This document shows positions 27,798 through 43,289 of a DNA stretch of 64,000 nucleotides, piece by piece (the first letter of the stretch is position 1; every line of letters starts with the position of its first letter). Under the pieces are notes generated by a model that saw nothing but the letters and a program-made list of their open reading frames with translations, was not told where the DNA came from and did no database searches. The stretch comes from an uncultured Nitrososphaerota archaeon (GTDB taxonomy: Archaea; Korarchaeota; Korarchaeia; Korarchaeales; Korarchaeaceae), in NCBI GenBank assembly GCA_964618805.1, contig CAZUBM010000001.1, positions 1 to 64,000 on the forward strand, in the 5' to 3' direction. Position numbers and translations under genes: made by a program.

Positions 27798-28841
27798 ATG
27801 ATTAGATTGAGCGATGTTAAAACGTTAAAGAAAACTCCCCTATATGACTCTGTTGGCGAGGATGTAATCTGTAGAGTATGTGAAAGGAAGTGCCTGATTT
27901 CACCTGACGAAAAGGGCTTTTGTGGCACCAAAATTAACTTAGACGGGAAACTCTATACCATCGTCTATGGGGACTTAAGTGCCATGGAGAGCAGACCAAT
28001 AGAGATCAAACCTTTCTTTCATTATTGGCCGGGCTCATCCGCGATGACTATATCGACTTGGAGCTGCAACTTTCGCTGTCCTTGGTGTCAGAATTGGCAT
28101 CTTTCTACAAGACTGCCAGATCCTTCTACAGCAACATTCACGCCTCCTGAGCTTGTAATTGAGAGAGCAAAGAGAGCCGGAGATCAGGGGATTTGTGTGA
28201 GTTTTAATGAACCAACATTATTGTTTGAGTACAGCTTGGACTTATTCAACCTTGCTAAGAAAGATGGAATGTACTGCTGTTTTGTCTCCAACGGCTATAT
28301 GACTGAAGAAGCTCTCAAAATGTTGCATTCTGCAGGCCTGGATGGTTTAAAGATAGATGTGAAAGGAGGCGAGAAAGCTTATAGTAGATTTATTGGAGGC
28401 GCTAATTGGAAAATACCTTGGGGGAATGCAAAGCTTGCTCTATCGCTTGGAATTCATGTTGAAATCGTCTATCTAATAGTTCCAGGTGTAAATGATTCCC
28501 AAGAAGATCTGGCCTTGGCTGTGGAGACACACTTAAGGGAACTCGGTTCAGAAGTTCCACTACACTTTACTCGCTATTTTCCAGCTCACCTTTATACAAG
28601 GCCTCCCACTCCAATAGAAAAATTGGAGTATGCCAGAAATTTGGCGTTAGAAGCTGGAATCAATTTTGTTTACATAGGAAATGTGTTAGGGCATGAAGGA
28701 GAAAACACATATTGTCCAGATTGTGGTAAACTCCTGATAAGAAGATTTGGACCTAAAATCGTGAAATCTAATTTGACAAACGACAAGACATGTCCAGAAT
28801 GCGGAAGATACATCCCTATTAGCGGAAAGCTGATAGTGTAA
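27798..28841 (+). CDS. AmmeMemoRadiSam-system radical SAM enzyme
   Basis: CRVCERKC, PIEIKPFFH, CNFRCPWCQNW, FNEPT, HFTRYFP, YIGNV, CPDCG/CPECG. Confidence 0.9.
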   Translation: MIRLSDVKTLKKTPLYDSVGEDVICRVCERKCLISPDEKGFCGTKINLDGKLYTIVYGDLSAMESRPIEIKPFFHYWPGSSAMTISTWSCNFRCPWCQNWHLSTRLPDPSTATFTPPELVIERAKRAGDQGICVSFNEPTLLFEYSLDLFNLAKKDGMYCCFVSNGYMTEEALKMLHSAGLDGLKIDVKGGEKAYSRFIGGANWKIPWGNAKLALSLGIHVEIVYLIVPGVNDSQEDLALAVETHLRELGSEVPLHFTRYFPAHLYTRPPTPIEKLEYARNLALEAGINFVYIGNVLGHEGENTYCPDCGKLLIRRFGPKIVKSNLTNDKTCPECGRYIPISGKLIV

Positions 28842-28918: not shown

Positions 28919-30265
28919 ATGAGAAAGAAATTCACTAAGAGAGTAAAAGCAAGGCTTCCTTGGTTGGAGCATCTATCAGAATCCAGAGCGATAGAGGAGA
29001 TACTCCCAATATCTCATCAGAACCTTATATTGAAGGCTGGAAAGAACCTCTGCCTTCTGTGTAGGGGCTCAAAACTACTTTGCAGGAAACCGGCGTGTCC
29101 GATTCTGATGAAAGTCAAGGTATTTTCGAAGAAACTTAACTTACTGGAATCTGAACGAATTGAGGGGAGTTCTCCTCCAGCAGTTTTCGTAGGAAGGATA
29201 GGATATCCCTATGTGAGAGCAGGTCCACTAATTCCCCAGGAACTTGGTGATACATCTCTTTATGACAGACCAGAGGCTTGGTTTGGGATGAGCGTTGAGT
29301 CTATCCTAGAGTTCAGGCTTGGATTGGTGAGAGGGACATTCCCAGTTGATGTCAGGAGGCCCGCAAAAGCTGGTCGTTTAATGGAAAGTACTCTTGAAAT
29401 GACCCTGTCCGAAATATCAGTTGACTCTGAGACCAAGTTCAAGAAAAAACCTACGAAAACATTCCTGCTCGACGATGAAATACAGCCAATGGGTCCATTG
29501 GCTCCTCTTGAGGATGTGAGGATTTACTCAATGAGAACCGATCAAAGAATGGAGAAAGTCTTTGAGGATACGGGCCTGAAGGCACAGGCAGCCGTAATCG
29601 AATTGTACAGAAATGGAATAGAAGTAAGCAGAATACAAAGAGCATTTAGCGTAGGAGCTTTTGGACTTAAAACACAGAGAAGACTTGTTCCTACTAGATG
29701 GAGTATCACGGCAGTAGATGATATGCTTGGAGTATGGCTGAGGGAAAGCTTTGTGAAGGACAAGCCCTTTCTAGATGAGTACAGGGTCTATCTGCTGGAA
29801 GCATATGGTAACAAATGGGCCATCATCATGATTCCAGGACCCTGGAGATATGAATCCATTGAGGCTTGGTATCCTGGCACGACCTGGAATCCTGAGGGAA
29901 TGAGCATAGCTTTCGTAGAGGACTATGAGGAACACTGGGGCAGGAAGGGATATGCATCAATGGGAGGATGTTATTACGCAGCTAGATTGGCTGTTTTAGA
30001 AAAGCTAAATGATGAGGGCAGACAGGCAACTGTTCTAGTGCTTAGAGAAATACATAATGACAGTCTCCTTCCTTTGGGAGTGTGGCTTGTGAGAGAAAGT
30101 GTCAGAGCTGCATTGAAAAGAAAACCTATGAAATCCCAAGATCTCAAAGAGATTTTGCAGAGAGTAAGTTCATTTTTAAACATCCCTATGAAACACTGGA
30201 AGGAAATAAGCATCACTCTAAGAGATATATCTAGAAGACAAAGCCTCGATGCTTACCTAAGCTAA
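28919..30265 (+). CDS. nreA: Nre family archaeal DNA repair protein
   Basis: CLLCRG..LC...CP, GSSPPAVFVGR, LVPTRWSITAVD, GGCYYAARL, GVWLVRE; C-terminal PIP box QSLDAYL. Confidence 0.92.
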   Translation: MRKKFTKRVKARLPWLEHLSESRAIEEILPISHQNLILKAGKNLCLLCRGSKLLCRKPACPILMKVKVFSKKLNLLESERIEGSSPPAVFVGRIGYPYVRAGPLIPQELGDTSLYDRPEAWFGMSVESILEFRLGLVRGTFPVDVRRPAKAGRLMESTLEMTLSEISVDSETKFKKKPTKTFLLDDEIQPMGPLAPLEDVRIYSMRTDQRMEKVFEDTGLKAQAAVIELYRNGIEVSRIQRAFSVGAFGLKTQRRLVPTRWSITAVDDMLGVWLRESFVKDKPFLDEYRVYLLEAYGNKWAIIMIPGPWRYESIEAWYPGTTWNPEGMSIAFVEDYEEHWGRKGYASMGGCYYAARLAVLEKLNDEGRQATVLVLREIHNDSLLPLGVWLVRESVRAALKRKPMKSQDLKEILQRVSSFLNIPMKHWKEISITLRDISRRQSLDAYLS

Positions 30266-30271
30266 TTGATA

Positions 30272-31096
30272 TTAATACATCCATTCAAGTTCATAACCAT
30301 ACTTCGCTGCTACTTCCTCGAATCTACCCTTTATATCGAAAAAGTAAGAGAGATCAAACCTTATCTTGTTATATACCTGAAGGTAGTCTGGAAGAGCTTT
30401 TTCTACCGCTTGCTTTATGAATTGCCATAATCGTGGCCTGATTCTGAGCAAATCAACCATAATTCTATCCGGATTTGCTTCCTTTATCTTCTTAAATAAA
30501 GGATCTAGGCATCTATCGGTTATTCCAGGGAGTATTGGAGAGATAAAGGCATAGGTCCTTATACCTTCCTCAGATAGCCTCCTTAACGCCGCCAGCCTTG
30601 ATTTAACGCTAGGAGCACGCGGTTCAAAATGAGATAACCAGAATGAATCTAATCCGCTAATTGAGAAGCCGACTTCTACATCTTCAAGCTTCGATATAAT
30701 GTCTAAATCCCGTATTACTAATGGAGATTTCGTTAGAATTGATATAGGAAATCTATACTCCCTAAGAACCTCGAGAATTCTTCTAGTTAGTTTATAAGTG
30801 CTTTCCTGTGGTAGGTAAGGATCAGTTACACTGCTCAAGAGTATTAATCCATTTCTTTTTTTCTTGAGTTCTTTTCTAAGGAGCTGCGTTGCATTAACCT
30901 TTGGAAAAACGAAATTGCCCCATTCATGATCTTCAGCCAGTTTTTCCCAAAACTTGGCCGTATAAAGGCGTGCGTAACAGTAAACACATCCATGAGAACA
31001 ACCTAAATATGGATTTATGGCATAATCGACTCCTATGATGCCACTCCTTGATAAAATCGATTTAGCAAAGATCTCCCTAACAAAAACCTTCTCCAA
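30272..31096 (-). CDS. Spore photoproduct lyase-like (SplB/Rv2578c family) radical SAM protein
   Basis: INPYLGCSHGCVYCYA, SSVTDPYLPQE, LTKS, FEPRAP. Confidence 0.88.
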   Translation of the reverse strand: MEKVFVREIFAKSILSRSGIIGVDYAINPYLGCSHGCVYCYARLYTAKFWEKLAEDHEWGNFVFPKVNATQLLRKELKKKRNGLILLSSVTDPYLPQESTYKLTRRILEVLREYRFPISILTKSPLVIRDLDIISKLEDVEVGFSISGLDSFWLSHFEPRAPSVKSRLAALRRLSEEGIRTYAFISPILPGITDRCLDPLFKKIKEANPDRIMVDLLRIRPRLWQFIKQAVEKALPDYLQVYNKIRFDLSYFFDIKGRFEEVAAKYGYELEWMY

Positions 31097-31268: not shown

Positions 31269-32690
31269 TTAGAATATAGAAAGAATAAGGGAGAAAGCTC
31301 CCAATCCTAAAAATACTGTAATTAAAGCAGTTATCAGAGCTATAAATACCTCTGGATCAGCTTTCTTTTCCTTAAGTTCTTTGATAGGTTCCCTGAAGTA
31401 AAGATATCTGATCACCTGAGCGTAGTATCCTACTGAGATCCCGCTGTTAAGGACACCAGCCAGCACGAGCCATGGTGCTACTTCAGTTGCAGAGAAGAAG
31501 AGATACATGAACTTACTCCAAAATCCTATCAATGGGGGAAAGCCCATTAGGCTCAGGATTAGAACAGATAATGAAGCTGATACTACCGGCATCTTTCTTC
31601 CAAGACCGCTTATTTCTTCTAAGGTAGGGGCTACACCTTTCCTTATAATATAAGCCAGAGCCACAAATATCCCTATCTTAGCCAGAACATATGTTGTTAG
31701 ATGAAGTGCTATTCCTTGGAAAGCTAGATCGGCTTCAGGGCCAACTATAGCTGAAAAACCTATCAATAAGTAACCAGCATGGGCGATGCTGCTATATGCC
31801 ATCATTCTCTGTACATTTCTCTGGAGCAGTGCCACGAAATTTCCAAATGTCATGGTCGCCAGGGAGAATAATGCCATCGTTGGAAGCCATTTATCAGCTA
31901 ATACCAAGTGCAAGGGAACTACAACCCTCAATAGTCCAGCTATACCAGCCATTTTAACTACTCCAGCGATGTAAGAGACCAGTATGGGATGAACTTCTCC
32001 ATACACATCTGGTAGCCATCCATGGAATGGAAATACCCCTAGTTTGAACCCAAAAGAGGCTATGAGGAGTATAAACCCAACGAAGAGTATTCTTATCTCT
32101 GCGACCCCAGGATCTAGGTTAAACATAAGCCGACTAGTACCCGCTAATCCCAAGACGAGCGCTAGTCCATACACCAACAGTGAGGATGATGCAGCACCCA
32201 TAATTCCGTATTTAGCTGCTCCTTCTACAGAACTCAAATCTTTCTTAATCCCAGCTAGCACATATGAAGCTACTGCAACTAAGGCCCATGCTCCTAGGAG
32301 GACGGAGGCATCGTTTACAAAAAGCATTATGTAAACTCCGGCAAGGGCCAGCATCATTAGTGAATATGAGCTTAGAGCTGTCGTCCAGTTAATTATCTGT
32401 GCTGAGGATGCTATGGCTACTAAGAGAGCCCCTAGGGTAACGAGCAAGGCTAAGTAAGCAGAATAGGAGTCTAATCGCAGGGAATCGTTGAAAGCAAAGA
32501 TAGGCTCTTGGAAACGAGAAAGTTCTGATGTAAGGAGAGCTGATACGATTAGAGTTATGAGAAGACAGCAAACGCACACATAGAACCCAAATCTCCTAAA
32601 TCTTCTTTTCTGATCAAAAAGAGGAAGGATAAGCCCTGGAACCACTAGCAGAATCAAAATTCCTTTAAGAAGTAGGATTGGATCATTCAT
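31269..32690 (-). CDS. nuoN: Complex I-like subunit N
   Basis: EGAAKY, FKLGVFPFHGWLPDVY, RMMAYSSIAHAGY, GFPPLIGFWSK. Confidence 0.92.
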   Translation of the reverse strand: MNDPILLLKGILILLVVPGLILPLFDQKRRFRRFGFYVCVCCLLITLIVSALLTSELSRFQEPIFAFNDSLRLDSYSAYLALLVTLGALLVAIASSAQIINWTTALSSYSLMMLALAGVYIMLFVNDASVLLGAWALVAVASYVLAGIKKDLSSVEGAAKYGIMGAASSSLLVYGLALVLGLAGTSRLMFNLDPGVAEIRILFVGFILLIASFGFKLGVFPFHGWLPDVYGEVHPILVSYIAGVVKMAGIAGLLRVVVPLHLVLADKWLPTMALFSLATMTFGNFVALLQRNVQRMMAYSSIAHAGYLLIGFSAIVGPEADLAFQGIALHLTTYVLAKIGIFVALAYIIRKGVAPTLEEISGLGRKMPVVSASLSVLILSLMGFPPLIGFWSKFMYLFFSATEVAPWLVLAGVLNSGISVGYYAQVIRYLYFREPIKELKEKKADPEVFIALITALITVFLGLGAFSLILSIF

Positions 32691-32694
32691 GGTC

Positions 32695-34905
32695 TTACAC
32701 CAACCATATAAGCAAGTATGCTAGAATTCCCAACCCTGCAAAGAATATGATGAGGTAATGGTTTACGATCCCCGTTTGAAGCCTCCTTAATTCTCCTCCT
32801 ATTTCCTTCAAAAGCCCTACGAATCCTTTGTGATATCCATCATCGATGACGTCGGTCTCTATATATCTGAACCCTAATGCGCTGGATATATCTGTAATTC
32901 TTGGAATGAACCTATGATAGAAACCATCTATGAGCAAAGTATCAAACCATTTAGATCCAAACGCGCTGGATATATCTGTAATTCTTGGAATGAACCTATG
33001 ATAGAAACCATCTATGAGCAAAGTATCAAACCATTTAGATCCAAACCTGGATAACCAGGCAAAGCCGTTAACAATCACTTTGTAATAGATTGAATTAATG
33101 TACCACCTGTCATAAAGCAAGGACTGGAGAGCTGGCAGGCTTCTAGATCTAGAAATCACTAAGAGCAAATTACTTCCTGTTTTTGTAAGATATGAGAAGA
33201 TTCCCGTTCCTATGCCCAAAAACACCATTGTTAGAGAAATTAATAGCAAAGTTGGATCAATGTGCACTTCAAAGTGGGTTGGGACCTCCTCCAGTGCGAG
33301 AATATTTCCTGTCAAAGCTTCATAGAATTTTGGTCCAATAATCGGCCACAATATGCCTAGAAGAAGTGAAACTAAGGCTAGAAGAAGGTACGGACAAGAC
33401 ATAATCGGATGAGCTTTGTGAAGTTTGTGTTCTTCTTCTAAATGCTCCACATTATGGGATTTCGTGCCCAAGAACGCTTTGATTATAAGCCTAATTGAAT
33501 AAAAGGCTGTCAATGCAGCGGTGATAACTCCTGAAGCAAATGCAATTGAAAGTCCTGACTCCCTAGTAATTTCCATTACAAAATCCTTACTCCAAAAACC
33601 TATGAGGGGAGGCAACCCTGATAGACTCAGAGCAGCAATTAACATTGAGTAAAAGGTGATTTTCATGTGATCTGAGAGTCCTCCCATATCATCTATGTAC
33701 TTAGAATGAACTGCATGAATTACAGCTCCAGCACCAAGGAAGAGGGCAGCCTTAAAGATAGCATGGCTCATGAAGTGACTAAAGCCAGCCAACATACCAC
33801 TTGCAAACTCTTTAACAAGGCCGGAACACCCAAGAACCATTACCATATAGCCTAACTGTGATGCCGTTGAAAAAGCAAGTATCAACTTCATTTCTCTGGC
33901 TACAAGCGCCTGAGTAGCCATGAAAAATGCCGTAAAACCACCCACCATCGCAATTATTGTGAAGTATGTTCCTATGGCTGCTGAGGCCTTCGGCATTGAG
34001 CCTAATAATTCGTGAGAGGCTAATACGAATATGGGAGAAAATCTGAGAAGGAAGTATACTCCTGCCTTCACCATAGTTGCAGCATGTATGAGGGCACTAA
34101 CCGGAGTTGGACCCGTCATTGCAGTAACAAGCCATTCGTGAAACGGGAACTGAGCACTCTTAGCCAACGCTCCTAGAGAGAAAGCTAGAAGAAATGGCAA
34201 GAGCAAATCCTTTGAAGCCAATAAGCCGGCCCACTCCGAAGAACGTTCTGCAATTTCTGGGATACTGAATGTCCCAGTAAGGGCATAGAGAACACCTATG
34301 CCCACCAGAAAACCAACATCTCCTAATCTAGTAAATACTAGGGCTCTTAAACCGCTGTGGCTTGGAGTGAAGTACATGGGGATCCCAAGAGCAGTTCTTC
34401 CAGGATCTCCCACCCATCTTTCCTCTTCATCGGTGTACCAATGACCAATTAAAGCATAGGAAGCAAGCCCAGTTCCCTCCCATCCAAGGAACATTAACAG
34501 AAGGTTATCTGCTAATATTAGGAGTAGCATACTTCCTACAAAGAAATCAAAGAAGAACCAATACCTAGTAAGTCCCGGATCTTCCTCCATGTACTTGAGA
34601 CTATAAACTCCTATGAGGAAGCTAAGCCAAGCTACCACAAGAGCCATGAACGCGGAGAGCGTATCGACGTAGACTCCAATATCAATGCCGAGCTCTGAAA
34701 TCCAAGGAACAGAGAAAGCTATAACCTTCTCAGTGGATGTTAGGACTTCTCGAAGTAATAAGGTCATACAAATCGCAGATACTCCAAGTAAGGAGGCAGC
34801 CAAGTATTCTCTAATCTTGCCTAATCTTGAAAGAATTAATGACAGCAAAGCCCCGAAATATGGGAGAATCCAAGTCACGACTGCCAAGGCCTGTGCTAAC
34901 TCCAT
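32695..34905 (-). CDS. nuoL: Complex I-like subunit L with elongated lateral helix
   Basis: GWEGTGLASY, KSAQFPFHEWLVTAMTGPTPVSALIHAATMV, HAIFKAALF, QTG before last TM; 736 aa. Confidence 0.95.
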   Translation of the reverse strand: MELAQALAVVTWILPYFGALLSLILSRLGKIREYLAASLLGVSAICMTLLLREVLTSTEKVIAFSVPWISELGIDIGVYVDTLSAFMALVVAWLSFLIGVYSLKYMEEDPGLTRYWFFFDFFVGSMLLLILADNLLLMFLGWEGTGLASYALIGHWYTDEEERWVGDPGRTALGIPMYFTPSHSGLRALVFTRLGDVGFLVGIGVLYALTGTFSIPEIAERSSEWAGLLASKDLLLPFLLAFSLGALAKSAQFPFHEWLVTAMTGPTPVSALIHAATMVKAGVYFLLRFSPIFVLASHELLGSMPKASAAIGTYFTIIAMVGGFTAFFMATQALVAREMKLILAFSTASQLGYMVMVLGCSGLVKEFASGMLAGFSHFMSHAIFKAALFLGAGAVIHAVHSKYIDDMGGLSDHMKITFYSMLIAALSLSGLPPLIGFWSKDFVMEITRESGLSIAFASGVITAALTAFYSIRLIIKAFLGTKSHNVEHLEEEHKLHKAHPIMSCPYLLLALVSLLLGILWPIIGPKFYEALTGNILALEEVPTHFEVHIDPTLLLISLTMVFLGIGTGIFSYLTKTGSNLLLVISRSRSLPALQSLLYDRWYINSIYYKVIVNGFAWLSRFGSKWFDTLLIDGFYHRFIPRITDISSAFGSKWFDTLLIDGFYHRFIPRITDISSALGFRYIETDVIDDGYHKGFVGLLKEIGGELRRLQTGIVNHYLIIFFAGLGILAYLLIWLV
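32879..33046. repeat. Exact in-frame 84-bp tandem duplication in nuoL
   Basis: 32879-32962 identical to 32963-33046; encodes FGSKWFDTLLIDGFYHRFIPRITDISSA twice. Confidence 0.97.
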
Positions 34906-34920
34906 GAGGATGTCATCACC

Positions 34921-36468
34921 TCATCCCAAGAGGGAATTCAGGACCGATACTAAGGGATTTATCAATATGCTTGGCCAGATGAACAAGAGTACGCCCGCTG
35001 CTGCTACTATAATCATAGGAGCTAAAAGACCAAATCCTGCTTCCTTGGCTTTCGTAGTAGCTTCAGAGAGCTGTCCGAAGAAGATCCTTTTCATAGTCAG
35101 AAATGCATATGCTGTTGACAGTCCAATTCCAACAAGAAGCGCTGCCAGCAATCCTACAAAGGCAACAACACTTTTGCCTAGAATGCTACCAGCTGCTCCA
35201 CTTATAATGAGAATTTCGCTCCACAAGCCTAGCGATGGAGGAATTCCAGTGATATGCATAAAGCCTATGAGAGCTAGAGAGGCTGTAAGAGGCATCTTTG
35301 TGGCTATTCCTCCCATTTTGCTTATGCTTCTTAATCCATGCAATTGAACGATTAAGACGCCTGCAGTAGCGAATAGAAGGGCCTTCCCAACGGCATGAGC
35401 AGCATAGTGTATCATGGCTCCAGCTATTCCCGCAGTTGTGAGCGTTGAAATTCCTAATAGAAGATATCCCATCTGGGATATGCTAGAGTAAGCGAGAAGT
35501 CTCTTGAAATCATCCTGAGCTAACGCCATAAGCCCGCCATATATTATTGTTACAAGCGCTAGCGGAAGCATATAGATTGATAAATTGGAGAACTCATTTG
35601 GAAATAGGATGTAAGCAATTCTGATAAGTGCATAGCCAGCTATTCCAATAAGGTTAGGAGAAAGCAAGGCCGAGACTGGAGTAGGCGCCTCTGCATGCGC
35701 ATAGGGAAGCCATATGTGAACTCCAAATACTGCCATCTTCACAAAGAACCCTAATATCATCGCTATGGTAACTGGAAGCCTTAGAGTAGGCGACACAGCA
35801 CTTCCTAGGTTCAAGTTTGGTTGCAAAGCGATTGGGTCATAAAAATCGAATGTGCCTGCGCTAAGACCTACAACCAAAGATCCTATCAAGAAGACGAGGG
35901 CTCCTACATGCGTCCATATCAGATACATCAGCGATATCCTTTCCCTATTTCCATATCCGTAAAATGCGATGAGTAGAAAGCTGGGCAGAAGAGAGAGTTC
36001 TAGAAACAGGTAAAACTCTACGAGATTTGTTGAGAGAACCGTTCCCATCATAGCAACCGAAAACATAACGTAAAGCATGTAATAAGTACCCCAGCTAGGA
36101 GCAGAAACCCCTTCTTTCTCCATCTCCTCGAATCTGTGTTCCATGTACGGTAGTGAGTAAGCCGCTATCAATGTAGTAACCAATCCTATCGATATCGTCA
36201 GTGGAGCACTTAGAGGATCCAATAAGGCGCTAAAGGATCCTAAAGAATCGCTTTGGAAGAATACTGGATCAACTATAGGTTCGCTTAGGCCTGTCTTGAA
36301 GATTAAGAATGAAATTAGGGCCAATGGATACAACAGCAGGATGAAGGCTATTGCGGCTATGGACTTCTTTCCTAAGCCCCTCCCTAAAAATGGAAGGAGC
36401 ACTGACAAAACTATAGGCACGATCACTCCTGATATCAAAATAGGACTACTCAATATCATACCATTCAC
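34921..36468 (-). CDS. nuoM: Complex I-like subunit M
   Basis: FYLFLELSLLP, VKMAVFGVHIWLPYAHAEAPTP, KRLLAYSSISQMG. Confidence 0.93.
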   Translation of the reverse strand: MNGMILSSPILISGVIVPIVLSVLLPFLGRGLGKKSIAAIAFILLLYPLALISFLIFKTGLSEPIVDPVFFQSDSLGSFSALLDPLSAPLTISIGLVTTLIAAYSLPYMEHRFEEMEKEGVSAPSWGTYYMLYVMFSVAMMGTVLSTNLVEFYLFLELSLLPSFLLIAFYGYGNRERISLMYLIWTHVGALVFLIGSLVVGLSAGTFDFYDPIALQPNLNLGSAVSPTLRLPVTIAMILGFFVKMAVFGVHIWLPYAHAEAPTPVSALLSPNLIGIAGYALIRIAYILFPNEFSNLSIYMLPLALVTIIYGGLMALAQDDFKRLLAYSSISQMGYLLLGISTLTTAGIAGAMIHYAAHAVGKALLFATAGVLIVQLHGLRSISKMGGIATKMPLTASLALIGFMHITGIPPSLGLWSEILIISGAAGSILGKSVVAFVGLLAALLVGIGLSTAYAFLTMKRIFFGQLSEATTKAKEAGFGLLAPMIIVAAAGVLLFIWPSILINPLVSVLNSLLG

Positions 36469-36776
36469 CCCCTTAACTCCCTCAATTTGTAGACATCCAA
36501 GCTCTCTCTAACTCTGAACATCAGTATAGCCACTGAAACTATCACTCCAACTTCTGCAGCGGCGAGAGATATTGCTAAGAGAGCTAAAGCTCCACCAGAT
36601 GGTCCAAAGGCCTTTGAAATGGAAGCTACACTTAATAGAGCTAGCAGAGCAGCGTTAAAGATCACTTCTGCGGATAAAAGCATCCTTATAAGACTTCTCC
36701 TAGTAAGTAGGCCATAGAGACCAATACAAAACATAACTATCGATGTTAGCAAGAACCAATACACCGTTATCGTCAT
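36465..36776 (-). CDS. nuoK: Complex I-like subunit K
   Basis: IGLYGLLTRRSLIRMLLSAEVIFNA, AAAEVGV. Confidence 0.92.
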   Translation of the reverse strand: MTITVYWFLLTSIVMFCIGLYGLLTRRSLIRMLLSAEVIFNAALLALLSVASISKAFGPSGGALALLAISLAAAEVGVIVSVAILMFRVRESLDVYKLRELRG

Positions 36777-37270
36777 GACTCAGACACCTCCTTTCTAGCA
36801 AGAGTAATGGCTTCTATCATAGTAGTAGCCAGTGCAAGGGCCGAAACTATGAGTGCAAAGCTATATTTGTTTAGCAAAACATCAGAAATATCCATCAAGC
36901 TGATTACGCCTCCAGCAGATTGGGACTTTAGCAAAGGCAAAAATCCCACTGAAAACAAAAATAAGACTTCGAGGGCCGCAATTAATGCGATGCCTCTTGC
37001 AACAGGCTCAACAAGAGGAGCCTCTCTGAGCATTACTACGGAGAACAAAATGAACGTAACTGCTGCTCCTACGTAAACTACTAAGTGGAAGAGTGAAACT
37101 ATTGGGTAACCAAGCAAGACGAAAAGAGCAGCATTTGATGTCCCTAGTAAGGCTAGGAAGAATGAAGCATAAACAATAGATTTATGCTCTACTACTAGGA
37201 GCGCAGAGATAAGCGCTCCTCCTGATGCCAGAAAGAAAACTATTAAGTATGGATCAATCTGCAGGTTCAT
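36773..37270 (-). CDS. nuoJ: Complex I-like subunit J
   Basis: Hydrophobic protein with VYVGA motif; position between nuoI and nuoK. Confidence 0.88.
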   Translation of the reverse strand: MNLQIDPYLIVFFLASGGALISALLVVEHKSIVYASFFLALLGTSNAALFVLLGYPIVSLFHLVVYVGAAVTFILFSVVMLREAPLVEPVARGIALIAALEVLFLFSVGFLPLLKSQSAGGVISLMDISDVLLNKYSFALIVSALALATTMIEAITLARKEVSES

Positions 37271-37763
37271 ATATTATCCCCCTCCTTAGATCCATCTTGG
37301 ACCTCACCAGTTTGGGAGGTCTCTCGTATTCAACCACAGGTGGACCTTTTTCGAAATCCTTTGGTTTAAATAATTGGGCTTCGAAGGAATCGAAGGCTAC
37401 ATCATGAATGCCAACATGTTCCAATGCTCCTGTTGGACAAATATCAACGCAAAAACCGCAAAAGATGCAACGCGTGTAGTTGATACCAGGACGTCTTTTT
37501 ACCTTAGCTTTGCCCTCTGAAGTTTGAGATTCTCCCTCTAAGTACATTTTCATTGCATTTGCTGGACATATTTGAGCGCATAGCCCGCAACTGATGCAGA
37601 TCTCCTTATGATATTTAATCATCCCTCTATATCCATCAGGAAGCTTCATAACCTCTTCTGGATACCTTACAGTCATTCTGGGAAGAAATAGATACTTGAT
37701 CCCCGTCCCTATAGCTCTAAGGTGATCAAATAACTTAATTGCTGATGAAGGTCTTTCGGTCAT
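37254..37763 (-). CDS. nuoI: Complex I-like subunit I (2x[4Fe-4S])
   Basis: TVRYPEE, CISCGLCAQICP, CIFCGFCVDICP; ATG 37763 overlaps nuoH stop (ATGA). Confidence 0.93.
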   Translation of the reverse strand: MTERPSSAIKLFDHLRAIGTGIKYLFLPRMTVRYPEEVMKLPDGYRGMIKYHKEICISCGLCAQICPANAMKMYLEGESQTSEGKAKVKRRPGINYTRCIFCGFCVDICPTGALEHVGIHDVAFDSFEAQLFKPKDFEKGPPVVEYERPPKLVRSKMDLRRGIIYEPAD

Positions 37764-38791
37764 GATACCACCCCCCATAGGAGAAGGCCCAGAGAGAGAA
37801 ACACAGATCCTATGGACATTGGCAGAATTATGTGCCACCCCATTCTCAAAGCCTGATCTATCCTATAACGAGGATACACAGCCCTCATGAAAACCCCGAG
37901 AACCATTATAGCCAAGGATTTCAATAAGAGAATGACTCCAGGAGCTATTGGACTCCAACTGAGAAATTTAGGTACGGGCTTCCAACCACCAAGGAACATT
38001 ATAGAAAACAGGAGGCAAAGAACGTAGAATTTAACGTAAGAGGCCCCCATGGTGAGCCCGTAAAGGATTCCACTGTATTCAGTAAAAGGACCCATAACTA
38101 TCTCGCTCTCTGCTTCAACGATCTCGAATGGAAACCTTGAAGTGGACATTAGTGCAAGTATTAGGAATGTGATGGCAGCAATTGGGTTCAAGAATAGACC
38201 CCATTTCCATCCTACCTGAGACTCCACGATTTCGATAAGATCCATAGTCCCATAGAGGGCAGCCATTGAAAGTGCTGATATGAACAATGGAATCTCATAT
38301 GCCATGGTTAGATAACCCTCTCTTAATCCTCCTATGAGAGAAAACTTGTCGTTGCTTGCCCAACCAGTAATTAGAGTAATAGCTGGACCAAATGTCAGCA
38401 AACCAAGCGATATAAGGAGGCTTATGTCACTTCTAAAAGCGTAGAAGGATTTACTCACTGGAATGGCTACGGTCGGAATATATGAGGCGGCAAAAAGGAA
38501 TATTGGTCCTAGCATGAACGCAAGCTTATCTGCACTTTCTGGAATTATTGGTTCAGCAAACAGATACCTAAGGAGATCAGCTACTAACTGTATTGCTCCT
38601 CCTAGCTGCTTTAATACATAGAGAGGGCCATATCTAAGTTGAACTTTTGCGGCTAGCTTCCTCTCAAACCATATTATAAAGAGAATTACGATGAAGACTG
38701 TCACAAGTCCAGGGAATATTAGAGGTACAAATAGCCAGGGCGAGAACACTAGATTAATTATCCATTTCAATAAATCCATCAGGTTCATCAT
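37760..38791 (-). CDS. nuoH: Complex I-like subunit H
   Basis: ERKLAAKVQLRYGP, SRFPFEIVEAESEIVMG, PRYRIDQ. Confidence 0.95.
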   Translation of the reverse strand: MMNLMDLLKWIINLVFSPWLFVPLIFPGLVTVFIVILFIIWFERKLAAKVQLRYGPLYVLKQLGGAIQLVADLLRYLFAEPIIPESADKLAFMLGPIFLFAASYIPTVAIPVSKSFYAFRSDISLLISLGLLTFGPAITLITGWASNDKFSLIGGLREGYLTMAYEIPLFISALSMAALYGTMDLIEIVESQVGWKWGLFLNPIAAITFLILALMSTSRFPFEIVEAESEIVMGPFTEYSGILYGLTMGASYVKFYVLCLLFSIMFLGGWKPVPKFLSWSPIAPGVILLLKSLAIMVLGVFMRAVYPRYRIDQALRMGWHIILPMSIGSVFLSLGLLLWGVVS

Positions 38792-39954
38792 CGATCAGCC
38801 TCCGGTGGAAAATAATCTAAACTCCCATAGATTGCTGGGATGTCTGCAACCCTACACTCTCGTATTAAATGCTCAAACAGCACAACGTTTCTGAAGGAAG
38901 GGGTGACCATCCTAAACCTATATGGGGTAACGCTGCCATCACTTACTACGTAATATATTAGCTCTCCTCTAGCAGCCTCCACCCTTGAGAAAGCTTCTCC
39001 CTTTGGAGGTCTTAAATTAGCCATGATTGCTGGGAACTTCACTCTTCGCTTTGTCTCCATGAATTCCTTCCACTTTGGCGGTATCATCTTTAGATAATTC
39101 TCGCTAAGGATGGGTCCATCTGGAATCTGCTTAAGAGCCTGTCTGATGATCCTCATGCTTTGCTTTATCTCACCTATTCTAACTAGTAACCTTGCCATTG
39201 AGTCCCCTTCTTCTCTTACAACAACATCAAATTCTAGTTCAGGATAAGCGCAGTAAGGCTGAACCTTCCTGACATCATAAGGAACTCCAGATGCCCTCAG
39301 ATTTGGTCCTACAATCCCTAGCCTTATCGCATCCTCCTTCTTAAGTACTCCCACTCCCTCTAATCTCGCACGAGTAACAGGATTCCTAATGAATATTCTA
39401 TCATAATCCTCTAGCCTTCTCTCTAAATATCTTAGGGCTTTTTCCATCTCGTCTTCAAAACCCTGAGGCAGATCTCGCCTTACACCTCCTGGGATAATGT
39501 AAGAATAAGTTAATCTAGCACCCGTAAGCCATTGAGCCATTTCAATCATGATTTCCCTATCCGCAAAGCCCCACATGAAGACTGTGGAGGAGCCTAACAT
39601 GATCCCATGTATTCCTATTCCATAAAAATGACTGTGAATCCTATTCATCTCTGCAAGAATGGTCCTCAGATACTGTGCCCTTGGAGGGGCCTCCACTCCT
39701 AGAAGCTTTTCCAGCGCAAGCACGTAGCCTAGGTTGTGGTTAGCGGTATCTGCAAGGGAAGGCCTTTCAACTAAGGGTATTATCTGGATGTATTTCTTCG
39801 TCTCTGCAAGCTTCTCTACAGTTCGATGAACATATCCTATGTTTGGCTTGAGTCTAACCACCACATCCCCATCGACTTCAGCAACCAGCCTCATGTGGCC
39901 CGAAGACGGATGTTGAGGGCCTATTAGAAGCTCAATAATTCGCTCTTCACTCAA
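38788..39954 (-). CDS. nuoD: Complex I-like subunit D (no NiFe cysteines)
   Basis: GPQHPSSGHMRL, GYVHR, GPNLRASG, EAARGE, C-terminal SLDYFPPEADR; no CxxC pairs. Confidence 0.93.
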   Translation of the reverse strand: MSEERIIELLIGPQHPSSGHMRLVAEVDGDVVVRLKPNIGYVHRTVEKLAETKKYIQIIPLVERPSLADTANHNLGYVLALEKLLGVEAPPRAQYLRTILAEMNRIHSHFYGIGIHGIMLGSSTVFMWGFADREIMIEMAQWLTGARLTYSYIIPGGVRRDLPQGFEDEMEKALRYLERRLEDYDRIFIRNPVTRARLEGVGVLKKEDAIRLGIVGPNLRASGVPYDVRKVQPYCAYPELEFDVVVREEGDSMARLLVRIGEIKQSMRIIRQALKQIPDGPILSENYLKMIPPKWKEFMETKRRVKFPAIMANLRPPKGEAFSRVEAARGELIYYVVSDGSVTPYRFRMVTPSFRNVVLFEHLIRECRVADIPAIYGSLDYFPPEADR

Positions 39955-40442
39955 GCCTGAATCCCCTCCGTTTTTACCTCGAATTCCTTCCTAAGAGGGG
40001 GAGGTCCCTCGTAATCATCCGGCAATAACAGCCTCTCAAGTTCCGGGTGTCCTTCAAAGACTATGCCAAGCATTTCGTACTCCTCTCTCTCCAGATATTT
40101 GGAACTTGGCCATATTTCGATAAGAGATGGTAAATGAGGCTCTTCGCTTGGTACTCTTGCTTTTAATACGACTATGACCTTTGCAAGATCCAGATTTCCG
40201 AGAGAGGAGATATGATAGACCACTTCTAACTCCTTTTGTTCGGGAAGGTCTATAGCCGTTACCGACTTGACGTGATCAAATCCTATTTCTTTTAGTTTTT
40301 TGGCCACCTCTAGAAGGTTATCTGGTTCTACTTGCACTGTAACTATTTCATCCTTAGTGCCTATTTCGGTAGAGAGTTCTCGTAGTGATTGGGAAATTTT
40401 TTCTATAATGCTCTCTAATCCAGCTTCAGACCTTGAGTCCAA
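39951..40442 (-). CDS. nuoC: Complex I-like subunit C
   Basis: VTAIDL, EREEYEMLGIVFEGHP, PLRKEF. Confidence 0.93.
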   Translation of the reverse strand: MDSRSEAGLESIIEKISQSLRELSTEIGTKDEIVTVQVEPDNLLEVAKKLKEIGFDHVKSVTAIDLPEQKELEVVYHISSLGNLDLAKVIVVLKARVPSEEPHLPSLIEIWPSSKYLEREEYEMLGIVFEGHPELERLLLPDDYEGPPPLRKEFEVKTEGIQA

Positions 40443-40950
40443 AAGCTTCTCCCTCCCTTATCCTCTTTTGTAACATAATGATCGATCTAGCAACGGCTTC
40501 TGGTCTTGGTGGGCATCCAGGGATAAATATCTCAACAGGTAGAATGTCCTTCGGTCTAACTATGTTGTAACTGTTCCAAAAGATTCCACCATCGATAGCG
40601 CAGGCACCCATTGCTATAACGAACTTCGGTTCAGGCATTTGCTCATATACCCATACGGCTGCTTTGGCCATCTTACGAGTTAAAGTCCCCTCTATGAGCA
40701 TGAGATTAGTTTGTCTAGGGGCTACAAAAGGAAGAAAGCCAAACCTCTCAACATCAAACCTTGGAGCAGAGGTAGCTGCAAACTCAGCTCCGCAACAAGC
40801 AGTAGTGAAGTGGACAGGCCATAAGGAGAAAGCTATTCCCCAATCCCTTAAGTTTCTAATAGGTGTCTTCTTTACCAACCACTGAGCTGCTCTCTTTGCA
40901 GATTCTTCCAGATTTCCGATTAACGTAACTCCTGCTATTCTGCAGACCAT
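40426..40950 (-). CDS. nuoB: Complex I-like subunit B (N2 cluster)
   Basis: TACCGAE, PRQ, AMGACAIDGG, IPGCPPRPEA. Confidence 0.95.
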   Translation of the reverse strand: MVCRIAGVTLIGNLEESAKRAAQWLVKKTPIRNLRDWGIAFSLWPVHFTTACCGAEFAATSAPRFDVERFGFLPFVAPRQTNLMLIEGTLTRKMAKAAVWVYEQMPEPKFVIAMGACAIDGGIFWNSYNIVRPKDILPVEIFIPGCPPRPEAVARSIIMLQKRIREGEAFGLKV

Positions 40951-41318
40951 AATTTCAACCTCCGAGCAGAATTAAGACCAAAAAGCAGGGGCGGGCTTAT
41001 AATACCGAGAATCGCTAGAAATAAGAACAAAACTCTATATGGGCTGTTATGAGCCTCCATCAGAAGCAGAAACGAGTAAATCATAACTGGTTCGACGGTC
41101 AGGAAAACAATTAAGTAAGGATAATATTGCATCATGAAAAGACCTCTTGCCCTTCCCCTAGGAGGATTTCCACACTCATATCTTAGCCGCTTTCTCTCTA
41201 AACTGCGTGATGGTGCCAGCAATCTTCCAAGAATAAATCCCAACATGCCTATACCAACTCCAATTGCTAGAGCTGCTGAGAACGTAAGCAAAATGCTCAT
41301 TCCTTGATTGTAAGGCAT
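40935..41318 (-). CDS. nuoA: Complex I-like subunit A
   Basis: YECG loop, QYYPYLIVFLTVEP, three TM segments. Confidence 0.9.
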   Translation of the reverse strand: MPYNQGMSILLTFSAALAIGVGIGMLGFILGRLLAPSRSLERKRLRYECGNPPRGRARGLFMMQYYPYLIVFLTVEPVMIYSFLLLMEAHNSPYRVLFLFLAILGIISPPLLFGLNSARRLKLWSAE

Positions 41319-41546: not shown

Positions 41547-43289
41547 TTAAAACAGGGTTCTTACGATTGCCTTAATTATTCCCAAAGGTCTTAATGAACT
41601 TAGTAGGCCAATTCTAGGATATAGCTCTTTTTTAAGGAGAAATTCCTTTTCCTCCATCAAATCAATTATCTTAGCCTTTAGAGAATTGAGCACATGATGC
41701 TTATCTTCCTCGCTCCTCACAGTTTTCTCGATCAGAGACAGACATTCTCTGCTGAATGATGTTCTTTCCCTTACTGCAGTGAGCGTTTCTTCATCAATGA
41801 TTCCGTACTTTTCTTTTATTTCTGCTAATCTTTCAGCAGCGCTTAAGCTAGCCTCAACGATTTCCCCTCTATCCATCCAATTCGTACTGTAGTTAAGGGT
41901 ATATTTCCAGTGAAGCTCTAACAATGCCTTTCTATGTTCAGAAAAAGTTCTGTAGATGATATTGTACCCGAATTTTTCTGGATTCTCAAAAGCAAGGCTT
42001 CCTGGATCAATAAATGGCGCCAAGGGCGCCGTAAATGCCTCTAGTTTACCTGGCACATTGCTTCTATTCAGTAAGTACTCAAAGTACCTAGCTATACCTA
42101 CTGCATCCTCTATTGTTTGAAGAGGTAAGCCTGTCATAAAGTAAAGGTCTATTCTTTTTATACCAACCTTTATTGAGTTATCTATCATCTTTTCCAGCGT
42201 TTTGTTCCTATATAGTCTCCCATAATTATATCGAATCCTTTCGACGTGAGTTTCAGGAGAAATCTGTATGTAAACGTTATCTCCTAGCCTAGATAGTTGA
42301 AGCAGAAGCGATCTATTAACCGGGAAGAAGAATTCGAACATTAAATCATTCCCAACGTCGATGGCTTTGAGTTCCTTAATTATCCTATCAGCTCTCTCCC
42401 TTCCGCCAAGTCTAACATCGCCTAAAATAAATATTGGGGCCTTTAACTTCTCAGCTATTGATTTCACTTCCTGCCCAATCCGTTCAGGGCTTTTCAAAGC
42501 TAGAGAACATCTATTCAAGAAGTTAGAGTAGAAGCTCTTTGATCCTCCGCAACCAGCGCAATTAAAAACACAGCCTTTTGCTGTAAGTACTGCTGTTATT
42601 GGGTTTTTCAGAAATGAGGCAAAAGGGGCCGATATAGCTAAATCTTTCGTTCTTAATATCTGTCTGACCATGAAATCATAACTAGGACTAACATAATCAA
42701 GGGACTCAGGGACATAGGTAAGAGCATTCTCACGAATCCTACCATTCTCTCTCCAAATCAAATTTGGAACGTTAGAGAAGTCTCTGTTCCCTTTTAGCAC
42801 CTTTTCAGCCAGAAGAACAAACGGATCTTCTGTAGAATCTCCTCTCAAAATGAAGTCTATGAAAGGATAGCTCTTCATTATCTCAGCCCAAAAATAAGAG
42901 GAGGATACGCCCCCGAGTACTATGGGGGAGTTGGGATGAAATCGCTTTATCATCTTAGCAATTTCTATGGCTCCATGTGCGTGAACCAGCCAGTGTAGAT
43001 CAATACCGTAAATTCTTGCGTTTAATCGCTCAAGAAAATTGGGTACACTGAAATTTTTATCTATCAGCATTTTAGAGGCGAGATTATAGATAACAACATT
43101 AAATCCTCTTTCCTCAAGGGAGGAAGCAAGTGTTAGGAAACCTATCGGGTACATGTCAAATACGTATAGAGATGGAACGACTTCGCTTACCGGTCCAGGA
43201 AAGACAACCTTTTCCCTGAAGTCGTACACACTTGGAGCATGAATTAATGCTATATCGCATGAAGGCATCCCTACATTCCCTTCTGACAC
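41547..43289 (-). CDS. B12-binding domain/radical SAM protein (TIGR04190-like)
   Basis: LIHAPSVYDFR, FDMYPIGF, GIDLHWLVHAHG, CVFNCAGCGGS, PFIDPGS. Confidence 0.85.
   Translation of the reverse strand: MSEGNVGMPSCDIALIHAPSVYDFREKVVFPGPVSEVVPSLYVFDMYPIGFLTLASSLEERGFNVVIYNLASKMLIDKNFSVPNFLERLNARIYGIDLHWLVHAHGAIEIAKMIKRFHPNSPIVLGGVSSSYFWAEIMKSYPFIDFILRGDSTEDPFVLLAEKVLKGNRDFSNVPNLIWRENGRIRENALTYVPESLDYVSPSYDFMVRQILRTKDLAISAPFASFLKNPITAVLTAKGCVFNCAGCGGSKSFYSNFLNRCSLALKSPERIGQEVKSIAEKLKAPIFILGDVRLGGRERADRIIKELKAIDVGNDLMFEFFFPVNRSLLLQLSRLGDNVYIQISPETHVERIRYNYGRLYRNKTLEKMIDNSIKVGIKRIDLYFMTGLPLQTIEDAVGIARYFEYLLNRSNVPGKLEAFTAPLAPFIDPGSLAFENPEKFGYNIIYRTFSEHRKALLELHWKYTLNYSTNWMDRGEIVEASLSAAERLAEIKEKYGIIDEETLTAVRERTSFSRECLSLIEKTVRSEEDKHHVLNSLKAKIIDLMEEKEFLLKKELYPRIGLLSSLRPLGIIKAIVRTLF

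Follow-up and report, generated by a model that had tools for sequence, protein, structure and literature searches.

We are highly confident that the gene analysed here is a genuine nuoL, one of the 11 genes of a complex I-like operon in a Korarchaeia-type archaeon, and that the lateral helix of its product is built of 28-residue amphipathic modules, namely one A module, none to two B modules and one C module followed by RxQTG and TM16. The number of modules is quantised at two, three or four and changes by the in-frame gain or loss of exactly one of them. With the same confidence we regard the exact 84-bp duplication of the B module in this gene as real, and the sister species as having duplicated the module separately. 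The features are collected in Table 1, where positions refer to the window, that is, the whole stretch of 64,000 nucleotides that was analysed.

Table 1. Positions of the operon genes, helix modules and repeat within the window
Feature	Position	Strand	Description
nuoL	32695..34905	-	736 aa; antiporter-like core, then TM15, lateral helix, TM16
Module A, lateral helix	33022..33105	-	residues 601-628, WYINSIYY...GSKWFDT; AF2 pLDDT 81-87
Module B1	32938..33021	-	residues 629-656, LLIDGFYHRFIPRITDISSAFGSKWFDT; extra module, class-wide
Module B2	32854..32937	-	residues 657-684; second extra module, product of the recent duplication
Module C	32770..32853	-	residues 685-712, DVIDDGYH...RRLQTG; canonical final module
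TM16 anchor helix	32698..32769	-	residues 713-736; AF2 helix 714-735
84-bp x2 exact tandem duplication	32879..33046	.	copy junction 32962/32963; in coding order begins at the third base of codon R620
nuoM	34921..36468	-	515 aa; PF00361 3.1e-61; sole NuoM-type gene in the genome
nuoN	31269..32690	-	473 aa; PF00361 5.5e-53
nuoA, B, C, D, H, I, J, K	36465..41318	-	Pfam PF00507, PF01058, PF00329, PF00346, PF00146, Fer4, PF00499, PF00420

The nuoL gene and the modules of its helix

The product of nuoL matched PF00361 (3.7e-54, the Proton_antipo_M core) and PF00662 (4.3e-15, the Proton_antipo_N element), both above the curated cut-offs. Its AF2 model had a mean pLDDT of 87.9, and the best Foldseek matches of the model were chain L, ND5 or NdhF from solved complex I, with a TM-score of 0.73-0.86 on the target. 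TM15, the long lateral helix and the TM16 anchor are the C-terminal traits that separate L from M and N, and the model has such a NuoL-type C-terminus, with helices at residues 551-573, 575-709 (with breaks) and 714-735. Furthermore, TM16 and the RLQTG end align with the C-terminus of T. thermophilus Nqo12. Residues E143, K249, H274 and K385 were invariant in 81 sequences; going by alignment, they may correspond to charged ion-path residues of E. coli or T. thermophilus.

A preliminary description of this DNA had reported a motif recurring every 28 residues over 112 residues (32770-33110). This could be confirmed as four modules from W601 to G712 (nt 32770-33105), with INSIY at residue 603, IDGFY at 631 and 659, and IDDGY at 687. 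The B module has the motif FDxxxIDGFYHxxIP..., and the C module closes in RxQTG, after which TM16 begins. Module A was found in all of the 90 complete NuoL relatives. The AF2 pLDDT of B2 was only 44-54, and few alignment rows span the columns of this module.

The 84-bp duplication and its support in the reads

Tandem Repeats Finder reported at 32879-33046 an array of period 84 with 2.0 copies, 100% matches and a score of 336, which was the sole array with a score of at least 80 across the 64-kb window. The self-match at a shift of 84 was exactly 84 nt long, and this means two identical copies with no flanking microhomology. The two middle modules come from this tandem repeat, as had been described before.

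Regarding the reads, in the k=31 unitigs of run X1 the flanks had depths of 33.3 and 36.3, the 84-nt repeat unitig 64.2 and the 60-nt junction unitig (32933-32992) 29.1. In run X2, which shares its sample with X1, the respective depths were 5.75 and 6.26, 8.28 and 3.8. Since these read-derived unitigs show the junction with roughly the depth of a single copy and the unit with roughly twice as much, the repeat is not an assembly artefact, and the objection that reads might support only one copy, foreseen in the preliminary description, fails. X1 may be the source sample of the window, so this support is independent of the assembler but not of the sample. Two runs from another study (X3 and X4) contained pieces of the gene, none of them bridging the repeat, and do not inform on copy number. 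The X1 depths (junction 29.1, repeat 64.2, flanks around 35) would fit about 85% two-copy genomes but are within about one standard deviation of 100%, X2 being too shallow for such an estimate. A one-copy genome yields no unique k-mer, therefore a minority of such genomes is compatible with the unitigs.

The protein versions from this and the sister species disagree according to their source: all four ENA-sourced versions have 708 aa and one copy, whereas all five NCBI/JGI versions have two copies. We considered the 708-aa versions as population variation and rejected this, because the split follows the source and some of the haplotypes match. The sister cluster contains three one-copy forms from ENA, and two of these, P0007 and P0009, agree in haplotype with a two-copy form, which points to a collapse of the repeat by an assembler.

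An exact duplication of 84 bp is also present in the nuoL of the sister species (G004), displaced by 3 nt relative to that of the present genome (G000). The G000 repeat begins at nt +65 with a chimeric junction codon GC|G, and the G004 repeat begins at nt +62 with the junction AG|C and 2 nt of microhomology. This 3-nt offset indicates separate origins. The repeat copies are 100% identical inside each of the two genomes, the orthologous genes share around 75% DNA identity, and the duplication is absent from a third species of the genus. The earlier suggestion that the exact repeat is recent holds. The G004-type duplication is common to four haplotypes, two of which carry one substitution in one copy.

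Module number across relatives

The span equivalent to W601-G712 was 55-57 aa in 44, 83-85 aa in 41 and 111-114 aa in 5 of the 90 complete NuoL relatives, and no intermediate length was found among them. The 56 aa that are left when both middle units are removed thus agree, as had been expected, with a common span. On a NuoL tree made from the core without the helix (81 rows), the module number changed at least 8 times, and the starred branches force at least 6 changes. One extra B module is the normal state throughout the class. Four-module helices occur in at least 7 independent lineages; old, diverged four-module forms were found in three other lineages and young B duplications in two others (fragments P0019 and P0022).

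Among the 41 three-module relatives, the mean frequency of the top residue was 0.62 for B, 0.71 for A and 0.56 for C; judged by sequence, B is conserved as well as the canonical modules. The phase of the hydrophobic moment is the same in every module (242-265 degrees). R707 and G712 are nearly invariant in the 81 sequences, RxQTG and TM16 are conserved through the two-, three- and four-module forms, and TM16 is almost identical in the close relatives L065 and L059, which have two and three modules respectively. A search with residues 575-736 against 1.84 billion representatives gave 69 matches, with no form of five or more modules among them. Two multi-stretch matches, P0023 and P0058, were discarded as unrelated repetitive proteins.

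Both the single extra module as the norm of the class and the independent recurrence of the second duplication go beyond the preliminary description.

Operon and antiporter genes

The operon has the order A-B-C-D-H-I-J-K-M-L-N, lacks nuoE/F/G and is neighboured by radical SAM and Nre genes. Its single nuoM is placed between nuoK and nuoL, with a start that overlaps the end of nuoK. It had been suggested that paralogues encoded elsewhere could supply extra pumping subunits. Nevertheless, a PF00361 search of the whole genome (93.7% complete) found only three genes, nuoM, nuoL and nuoN, and the same search in five relatives (the near-closed G013 in 1 contig and G019 in 2 contigs, and G009, G002 and G004) found three genes each and no fourth. 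Two of the three genomes with old four-module helices likewise have nuoL, nuoM and nuoN only, and the remaining one possesses another cluster, which includes an L of its own. When helix units were counted against antiporter genes in relatives, as had also been proposed, the gene content did not match that of 2M complexes: a fourth antiporter-like ORF was found in none of the 80 related loci, with flanks of up to 6 kb.

We tried the second complex I-like clusters of G015, G025 and G014 as internal 2M controls and rejected them; their L-type subunits with a lateral helix (G015, G025 and contig C114 of G014) were canonical two-module forms and there was no fourth antiporter-like ORF. The ribosome-binding regions of nuoM, nuoL and nuoN bear no sequence mark of higher nuoM expression, and are uninformative on relative expression. 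A predicted complex of two NuoM copies (residues 8-507) had a score of 0.00, which is no answer and weighs neither for nor against binding.

Comparison with known systems

The canonical NuoL/Nqo12/ND5 (4HE8 chain L, 3RKO chain L) shares with our protein the Pfam domains and the fold, as well as modules A and C and the closing RxQTG-TM16 element. Its span is one A and one C module, corresponding to the 55-57-aa class of the archaeal relatives.

A close comparison is with the 2M complex I (Chadwick et al. 2018, ISME J 12:2668), as described in the citing papers PMC9040806, PMC7300363 and PMC7419157. According to what these papers relate, that operon type often lacks NuoEFG, as the present operon does, and in both the NuoL lateral helix is longer, by one module of around 26 aa in 2M and by two 28-aa modules here; in 2M complexes the 26-aa insertion, at the same place of the helix, accompanies an extra NuoM (PMC9040806). 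However, 2M operons encode a second NuoM, whereas the present genome contains a single nuoM and, beyond nuoL and nuoN, nothing antiporter-like. Ca. Manganitrophaceae Complex_I_1 and Complex_I_2 (Yu et al. 2022, PMC9040806) resemble the present case, having, as that paper describes them, a helix insertion with no matching extra NuoM in the operon; its authors left undecided whether the insertion accommodates extra subunits or marks a transition. Those organisms are bacteria with several complex I operons that might lend subunits, in contrast to an archaeon with one L/M/N set, in which the insertion is double and includes a recent event that can be dated.

Length changes in this helix have also been made artificially in E. 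coli NuoL (Belevich et al. 2011, PMC3274701). These were, as reported there, flexible loops of 6-7 residues, unlike the natural, conserved, whole 28-residue helical modules found here; some insertions were tolerated, and one at P552 reduced pumping to 20-25%. The same report places the NuoM contact at the NuoL kink P564-N566, which corresponds to the module kink. A helix longer by one module next to a single nuoM has already been reported (PMC9040806). What appears to be new is the presence of two such modules, the quantisation of the lengths and the repeated recent duplication. In the literature covered, mostly outside subscription journals and supplements, we found nothing on these three points, although Fig. 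S2 of PMC9040806 may bear on them.

The helix as a possible ruler

We tentatively propose that the lateral helix is a modular ruler, in which each extra module would dock one more copy of a pump subunit encoded in the operon, most simply NuoM. Each B module would provide once more the kink by which the helix docks on an M-type antiporter-like subunit, and would lengthen the helix by around 42 Å, roughly the width of one subunit, and the conserved RxQTG-TM16 end would still close on NuoN. As the genome has no further antiporter gene, more copies of the operon-encoded subunit would occupy the added positions, giving L-M-M-N in the class and L-M-M-M-N in this four-module organism. In that case a single duplication of 84 bp would add a pump with no need for a new interface, and would shift the ion/electron ratio. 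It is possible, though we think it rather unlikely, that the helix works as a tape measure setting the number of single-gene NuoM copies in the arm (1, 2 or 3 as n in L-M(n)-N), that gain or loss of 84 bp changes the ion/electron ratio in one step, like a gear, recurring across Thermoproteota and caught here just after the event, and that this would be the missing intermediate towards the two-gene 2M complexes.

In favour of the ruler we would count the quantised lengths, the at least 8 changes, the independent and young duplications, the conservation of B, the shared moment phase, the retained RxQTG and TM16, the E. coli contact between kink and NuoM, and the 2M insertion. Against it, no complex I-type enzyme is known to us whose two antiporter positions are both occupied by the product of one gene, and nuoM is a single gene with a start overlapping nuoK and no mark of higher expression in the sequence. 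By our estimate, six pumping units per electron pair would need a large driving force, for which only a low-potential donor, for instance ferredoxin, would be plausible. E. coli tolerates flexible insertions of 6-7 residues at some helix sites, so slack can be tolerated. Furthermore, weakly similar sequences lie 84 bp apart, apparently an old internal repeat, and slippage could favour 84-bp events without selection on length; and AF2 predicts A and B1 with confidence, but not B2.

The main rival to the ruler is a 1L:1M:1N complex in which the extra 42 or 84 Å of helix would be absorbed without a new subunit, by a detour on the membrane surface or by lying on existing subunits or lipid, the strap being longer or stabler and the number of pumps unchanged. 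We consider this conceivable but somewhat doubtful. It agrees with the single nuoM of every genome examined, with the short flexible insertions at G532 and P564 that are reported as tolerated in the E. coli helix (PMC3274701), and with the two Ca. Manganitrophaceae complexes, described as having a helix insertion beside a single nuoM (PMC9040806). Nevertheless, slack needs no whole modules, yet none of the 90 sequences is intermediate; B is conserved like the canonical modules and repeats the docking motif; in the AF2 model a single unbroken helix (residues 600-663) runs from A through B1 into the first part of B2, with no hairpin; and no evident benefit would explain at least 7 independent four-module lineages. 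A second alternative, which needs no additional gene either, is that the longer helix extends past NuoN, with TM16 anchored on NuoK/J/A in the three-module forms or near NuoH in the four-module ones, strapping more of the membrane arm. Given the dimensions of the arm, 42 and 84 Å beyond NuoN would remain within it. However, the partner of RxQTG-TM16 would then differ with each length class, yet this element is conserved in all of them and almost unchanged in close relatives one module apart, and each of the two recent one-step jumps would require a ready docking site. We regard this reading as very improbable.

Alternatively, the extra modules could clamp a candidate membrane partner unlike the antiporters, whose gene would lie outside the operon. 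Such a protein would be invisible to PF00361 searches, and the Fpo/Nuo-like complexes of Korarchaeia have been proposed, as stated in PMC10667645, to be coupled to HdrD/GlcD-type modules. This is nevertheless improbable: no candidate gene lies within or adjoining the operon, and the 28-aa step recurs in many lineages, twice in tandem, so the partner would need repeating too. Finally, the second B copy might be a nearly neutral, short-lived product of slippage, or an artefact of assembly, which we judge very unlikely. The exactness of the repeat, the one-copy ENA versions and the room that the unitigs leave for a minority of one-copy genomes speak for it. On the other side stand the junction depth of 29.1 against flanks of 33-36, the two copies in every NCBI/JGI version, the haplotype of P0007 and P0009, which is that of a two-copy form and points to collapse, the duplication shared by four haplotypes of the sister species, and the old diverged four-module forms of three other lineages.

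Significance

It is still debated whether the lateral helix of complex I is a strap, a ruler or a coupling element, and the use of its length as a readout of the number of pump subunits rests on 2M operons. This locus supplies natural variants with none, one or two extra modules in close relatives of identical gene content, and two of the independent changes are recent enough to remain exact repeats. Should the number of subunits be set by the helix, one small duplication could be enough for pump stoichiometry to evolve, and the chicken-and-egg problem of the origin of 2M complexes would be solved. If it does not, helix length is unusable for inferring extra pumps from genomes, as metabolic reconstructions now do. 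The host is an archaeon of hot vents.

The repeat array

The lateral helix of the window's NuoL (P0001) is modular, with W601-G712 (nt 32770-33105) made up of four 28-residue units, A, B1, B2 and C. The preliminary description had read the two middle units as a nucleotide-identical 84-bp tandem repeat. This holds, as Tandem Repeats Finder gave a period of 84 bp, 2.0 copies and 100% matches at 32879-33046 and the self-match of nuoL at a shift of 84 was exactly 84 nt; no other array scoring at least 80 was found in the 64-kb window. Read along the gene, the duplicated stretch begins with the third base of codon R620; the codon at the copy junction, GCG, combines GC from the unit end (GCA) with G from the unit start (AGG).

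Features of the nuoL gene, its helix modules, diverged four-module loci and neighbouring or related genes
Feature	Location	Strand	Remarks
nuoL (P0001)	window 32695-34905	minus	ORF, 736 aa
Module A	P0001 helix unit 1	minus	WYINSIYYKVIVNGFAWLSRFGSKWFDT
Module B1	P0001 helix unit 2	minus	LLIDGFYHRFIPRITDISSAFGSKWFDT
Module B2	P0001 helix unit 3	minus	LLIDGFYHRFIPRITDISSALGFRYIET
Module C	P0001 helix unit 4	minus	DVIDDGYHKGFVGLLKEIGGELRRLQTG
Four-module NuoL, diverged	L050		labelled Geothermarchaeales
Four-module NuoL, diverged	L057		Bathyarchaeota RBG_16_48_13
Four-module NuoL, diverged	L070		labelled Thermofilaceae
Radical SAM gene	window 27798-28841	plus	
Radical SAM gene	window 30272-31096	minus	
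Radical SAM gene	window 41547-43289	minus	
Archaeal Nre gene	window 28919-30265		PF04894/PF04895
NuoF-type gene	G000 contig C9 55007-55522	minus	PF01512, 617-aa open frame
Second complex I-like cluster	L115 2639-12061		genome G015

Copy number in reads and databases

Repeat copy number across 32879-33046 was checked, as had been proposed, in Logan unitigs (k=31) of two runs of the same sample, X1 and X2. In X1 the breakpoints are exactly those expected of a two-copy tandem repeat: the flanking contigs, at depths of 33.3 and 36.3, each reach 30 nt into the array, the 84-nt unitig has a depth of 64.2 (about twice the flanks) and a 60-nt unitig across the copy junction (32933-32992) has a depth of 29.1, around once the flanks. 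The corresponding pieces of X2 are at 5.75 and 6.26 (flanks), 8.28 (84-nt unitig) and 3.8 (junction). Junction unitigs occur in both runs and therefore the copy-junction words are present in the reads. A minority of one-copy genomes is compatible with the unitigs, because such a genome contributes no unique word; the depth ratios differ from those of two copies in all genomes by no more than noise.

In public protein sets the window's NuoL has 736 aa (NCBI, JGI) or 708 aa (ENA, P0002), the latter lacking one B copy and being otherwise identical over all 708 residues. In the sister-species cluster four full-length NCBI/JGI members have 736 aa and three ENA members 708 aa, two of these three (P0007, P0009) being the same haplotype as a 736-aa form. 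This split by data source looks like a systematic collapse of the 84-bp repeat in one assembly pipeline, not a demonstrated polymorphism. Counted by version, one 28-aa copy is missing from 4/4 ENA proteins (P0002, P0007, P0008, P0009) and retained in 5/5 NCBI/JGI proteins (P0001, P0003, P0004, P0006, P0010).

A separate duplication in the sister species

In the sister species G004, of the same genus and with 81% NuoL protein identity, the B module is likewise present as an exact 84-bp x2 repeat, and a third congener (G002) has one B module. The G004 repeat starts at +62 against +65 in the window (from the D of DRWY), that is, 3 nt earlier, with an AG|C junction and a microhomology of 2 nt. Around 29% of the bases differ between the two repeat units, in line with the roughly 75% DNA identity of the rest of nuoL. 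Since the junction codon is assembled in each species from that species' own flanking codons, the two duplications are separate and took place on already diverged sequences. The duplication was found in four haplotypes of the G004 species, two of which have K620 in the first copy and R at the junction position, a difference that fits a substitution later than the duplication.

Module number across relatives

NuoL was extracted from related genomes (30 loci) and from GTDB species genomes (80 loci), giving 93 distinct C-termini, of which 3 were truncated by contig ends and 90 were measured between the R of DRW and the G of QTG. Helix length is quantised: the span was 55-57 aa in 44, 83-85 aa in 41 and 111-114 aa in 5, with no intermediate length among these 90 complete C-termini. 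Two modules were found in Desulfurococcales, Acidilobaceae and Nitrososphaeria-type sequences, three in all Korarchaeia-type relatives and in many Bathyarchaeia, Methanomethylicia and Thermofilaceae-type sequences, and four in the window organism (G000), G004 and three diverged loci (see table). Searching 1.84 billion representatives with residues 575-736 gave 69 matches, none of them a five-module form. Two metagenome fragments from this search, P0019 (177 aa) and P0022 (318 aa), have four modules with B copies still very alike and represent further young B duplications in other lineages.

Module number is labile, also in recent times. On a NuoL core tree (quick maximum-likelihood search, helix columns excluded, 81 rows) it changed at least 8 times, at least 6 of them forced by starred branches, with 4-5 origins of the four-module state and a two-module pair (L065/L069) nested among three-module Bathyarchaeia. 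This pair and its close relatives L059/L082 (Bathyarchaeota labels) are exactly one B module apart (57 vs 85 aa), with TM16 and the flanking helix nearly identical, and offer a clean natural pair for helix-length experiments.

Conservation and geometry of the modules

Over the 41 three-module sequences the commonest residue had a mean frequency of 0.71 in A, 0.62 in B (consensus FDsLiIDGFYHRFIP) and 0.56 in C, therefore B is constrained like the canonical parts. Every 28-residue unit is amphipathic (moment 0.26-0.37) and the moment, measured from the first residue of the unit, points in the same direction each time (242-265 degrees). Since a continuous alpha helix rotates 280 degrees per 28 residues, the same face can be presented only with one helix reset per unit; we infer such a reset, consistent with the Pro and Gly in each. 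Residues R707 and G712 of RxQTG, the motif ending module C, hardly vary across the three length classes, and TM16, the last helix and anchor, is nearly unchanged between the two-module L065 and the three-module L059. Such conservation of the end points to a helix that closes on one and the same partner whatever its length class.

Antiporter-like gene content

No antiporter-like gene matches the added modules. The earlier suggestion that paralogues elsewhere in the genome supply extra pump subunits is not supported in G000 (93.7% complete), where PF00361 matched nuoM, nuoL and nuoN only. The same three were the only matches in G013 (1 contig, 99%), G019 (2 contigs, 99%), G009, G002, G004 and, with old four-module helices, G041 and G043; these absences are bounded by genome completeness, G013 and G019 being near-closed. 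In the four-module G042 a further three-gene cluster is present, which encodes an L of its own (683 aa). A fourth antiporter-like ORF of at least 250 aa was found in none of the 80 loci with flanks up to 6 kb, nor was a fourth antiporter-like ORF found in the extra complex I-like clusters of G015, G025 and G014, whose L-type subunits with a lateral helix (in G014, contig C114) are canonical two-module. Helix length is therefore not tracking the number of antiporter-like genes.

The second cluster of G015 lies directly upstream of the main nuo operon, head-to-tail, and comprises B, C, D, H, I, a 746-aa L with a canonical two-module helix, and an N-like and an M-like gene; the extra clusters of G014 and G025 are similar.

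Meaning of the extra modules

According to Yu et al. (2022, PMC9040806), NuoL of the Nitrospira 2M complex I, the variant with a second NuoM, carries an insertion of around 26 residues within helix HL that is postulated to let it span four pumping subunits, and the insertion recurs in MrpD2 of a five-pump complex. Other papers report that heterotrophic marine Thaumarchaeota have a 2M complex (PMC7300363), accept the 2M complex as having four antiporter-like subunits (PMC7419157), describe Korarchaeia as fermenters that rely on ferredoxin and have Nuo/Fpo-like complexes (PMC10667645), place the P564-N566 kink at the NuoM contact and find 6-7-residue flexible insertions tolerated at some helix sites, not P552 (both Belevich et al. 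2011, PMC3274701). One extra module beside a single nuoM is already in print for Manganitrophaceae. Within a partial literature coverage we found no account of two extra NuoL helix modules, of 2/3/4 module quantisation across Thermoproteota, of two independent exact duplications in sister species or of further young module duplications in other lineages.

We tentatively favour, at less than even confidence, that every B module adds a docking site for a further copy of one of the existing antiporter-like subunits, with NuoM as the simplest candidate; a one-step module gain would then require no new interface. We consider only slightly less likely that a 1:1:1 complex absorbs the extra helix; floppy slack is disfavoured by the whole-module quantisation, the conservation of B and the repeated fixation. 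These same observations speak against a neutral second B copy, and a neutral or artefactual copy appears improbable to us. Nevertheless, the A and B ends are weakly similar and lie 84 bp apart, which could promote slippage by 84 bp, therefore the exact recurrence of length alone is not proof of selection. The extra modules might instead bind a partner that is not antiporter-like, which is quite doubtful, or the strap might extend further, towards NuoK/J/A/H; the latter has little probability, being disfavoured by the same-partner closure argued from RxQTG-TM16.

The nuo operon and the predicted fold

P0001 matched both PF00361 and PF00662 in Pfam. Its AF2 model, from an 81-row alignment, has a mean pLDDT of 87.9, and the PDB entries that it matches best in Foldseek are solved complex I structures (chain L/ND5/NdhF). 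Helices are predicted at 551-573 (TM15), 575-586, 589-598, 600-663, 667-674, 682-709 and 714-735 (TM16), with a pLDDT of 81-87 in A, 74 dropping to 55 in B1, 44-54 in B2 and 54-69 in C.

The operon order is nuoA-B-C-D-H-I-J-K-M-L-N; each member fits its expected Pfam family and nuoE/F/G are absent from it. The closest loci belong to Korarchaeia-type Thermoproteota (Kor1-3, Ca. Methanodesulfokora and Ca. Korarchaeum, as labelled in the records), and the window sequence occurs in runs from hydrothermal vent metagenomes. The operon is flanked by three radical SAM genes, one of them carrying a B12-binding domain, the window also has an Nre gene, and the NuoF-type gene of G000 lies far from the operon. 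In the relatives L042-L047, G020, G021, G023 and G024, nuoM and nuoL share one reading frame with a single stop codon between them (515 + 1 + 700 codons), and the genome search reported the pair as a 1216-aa open frame.
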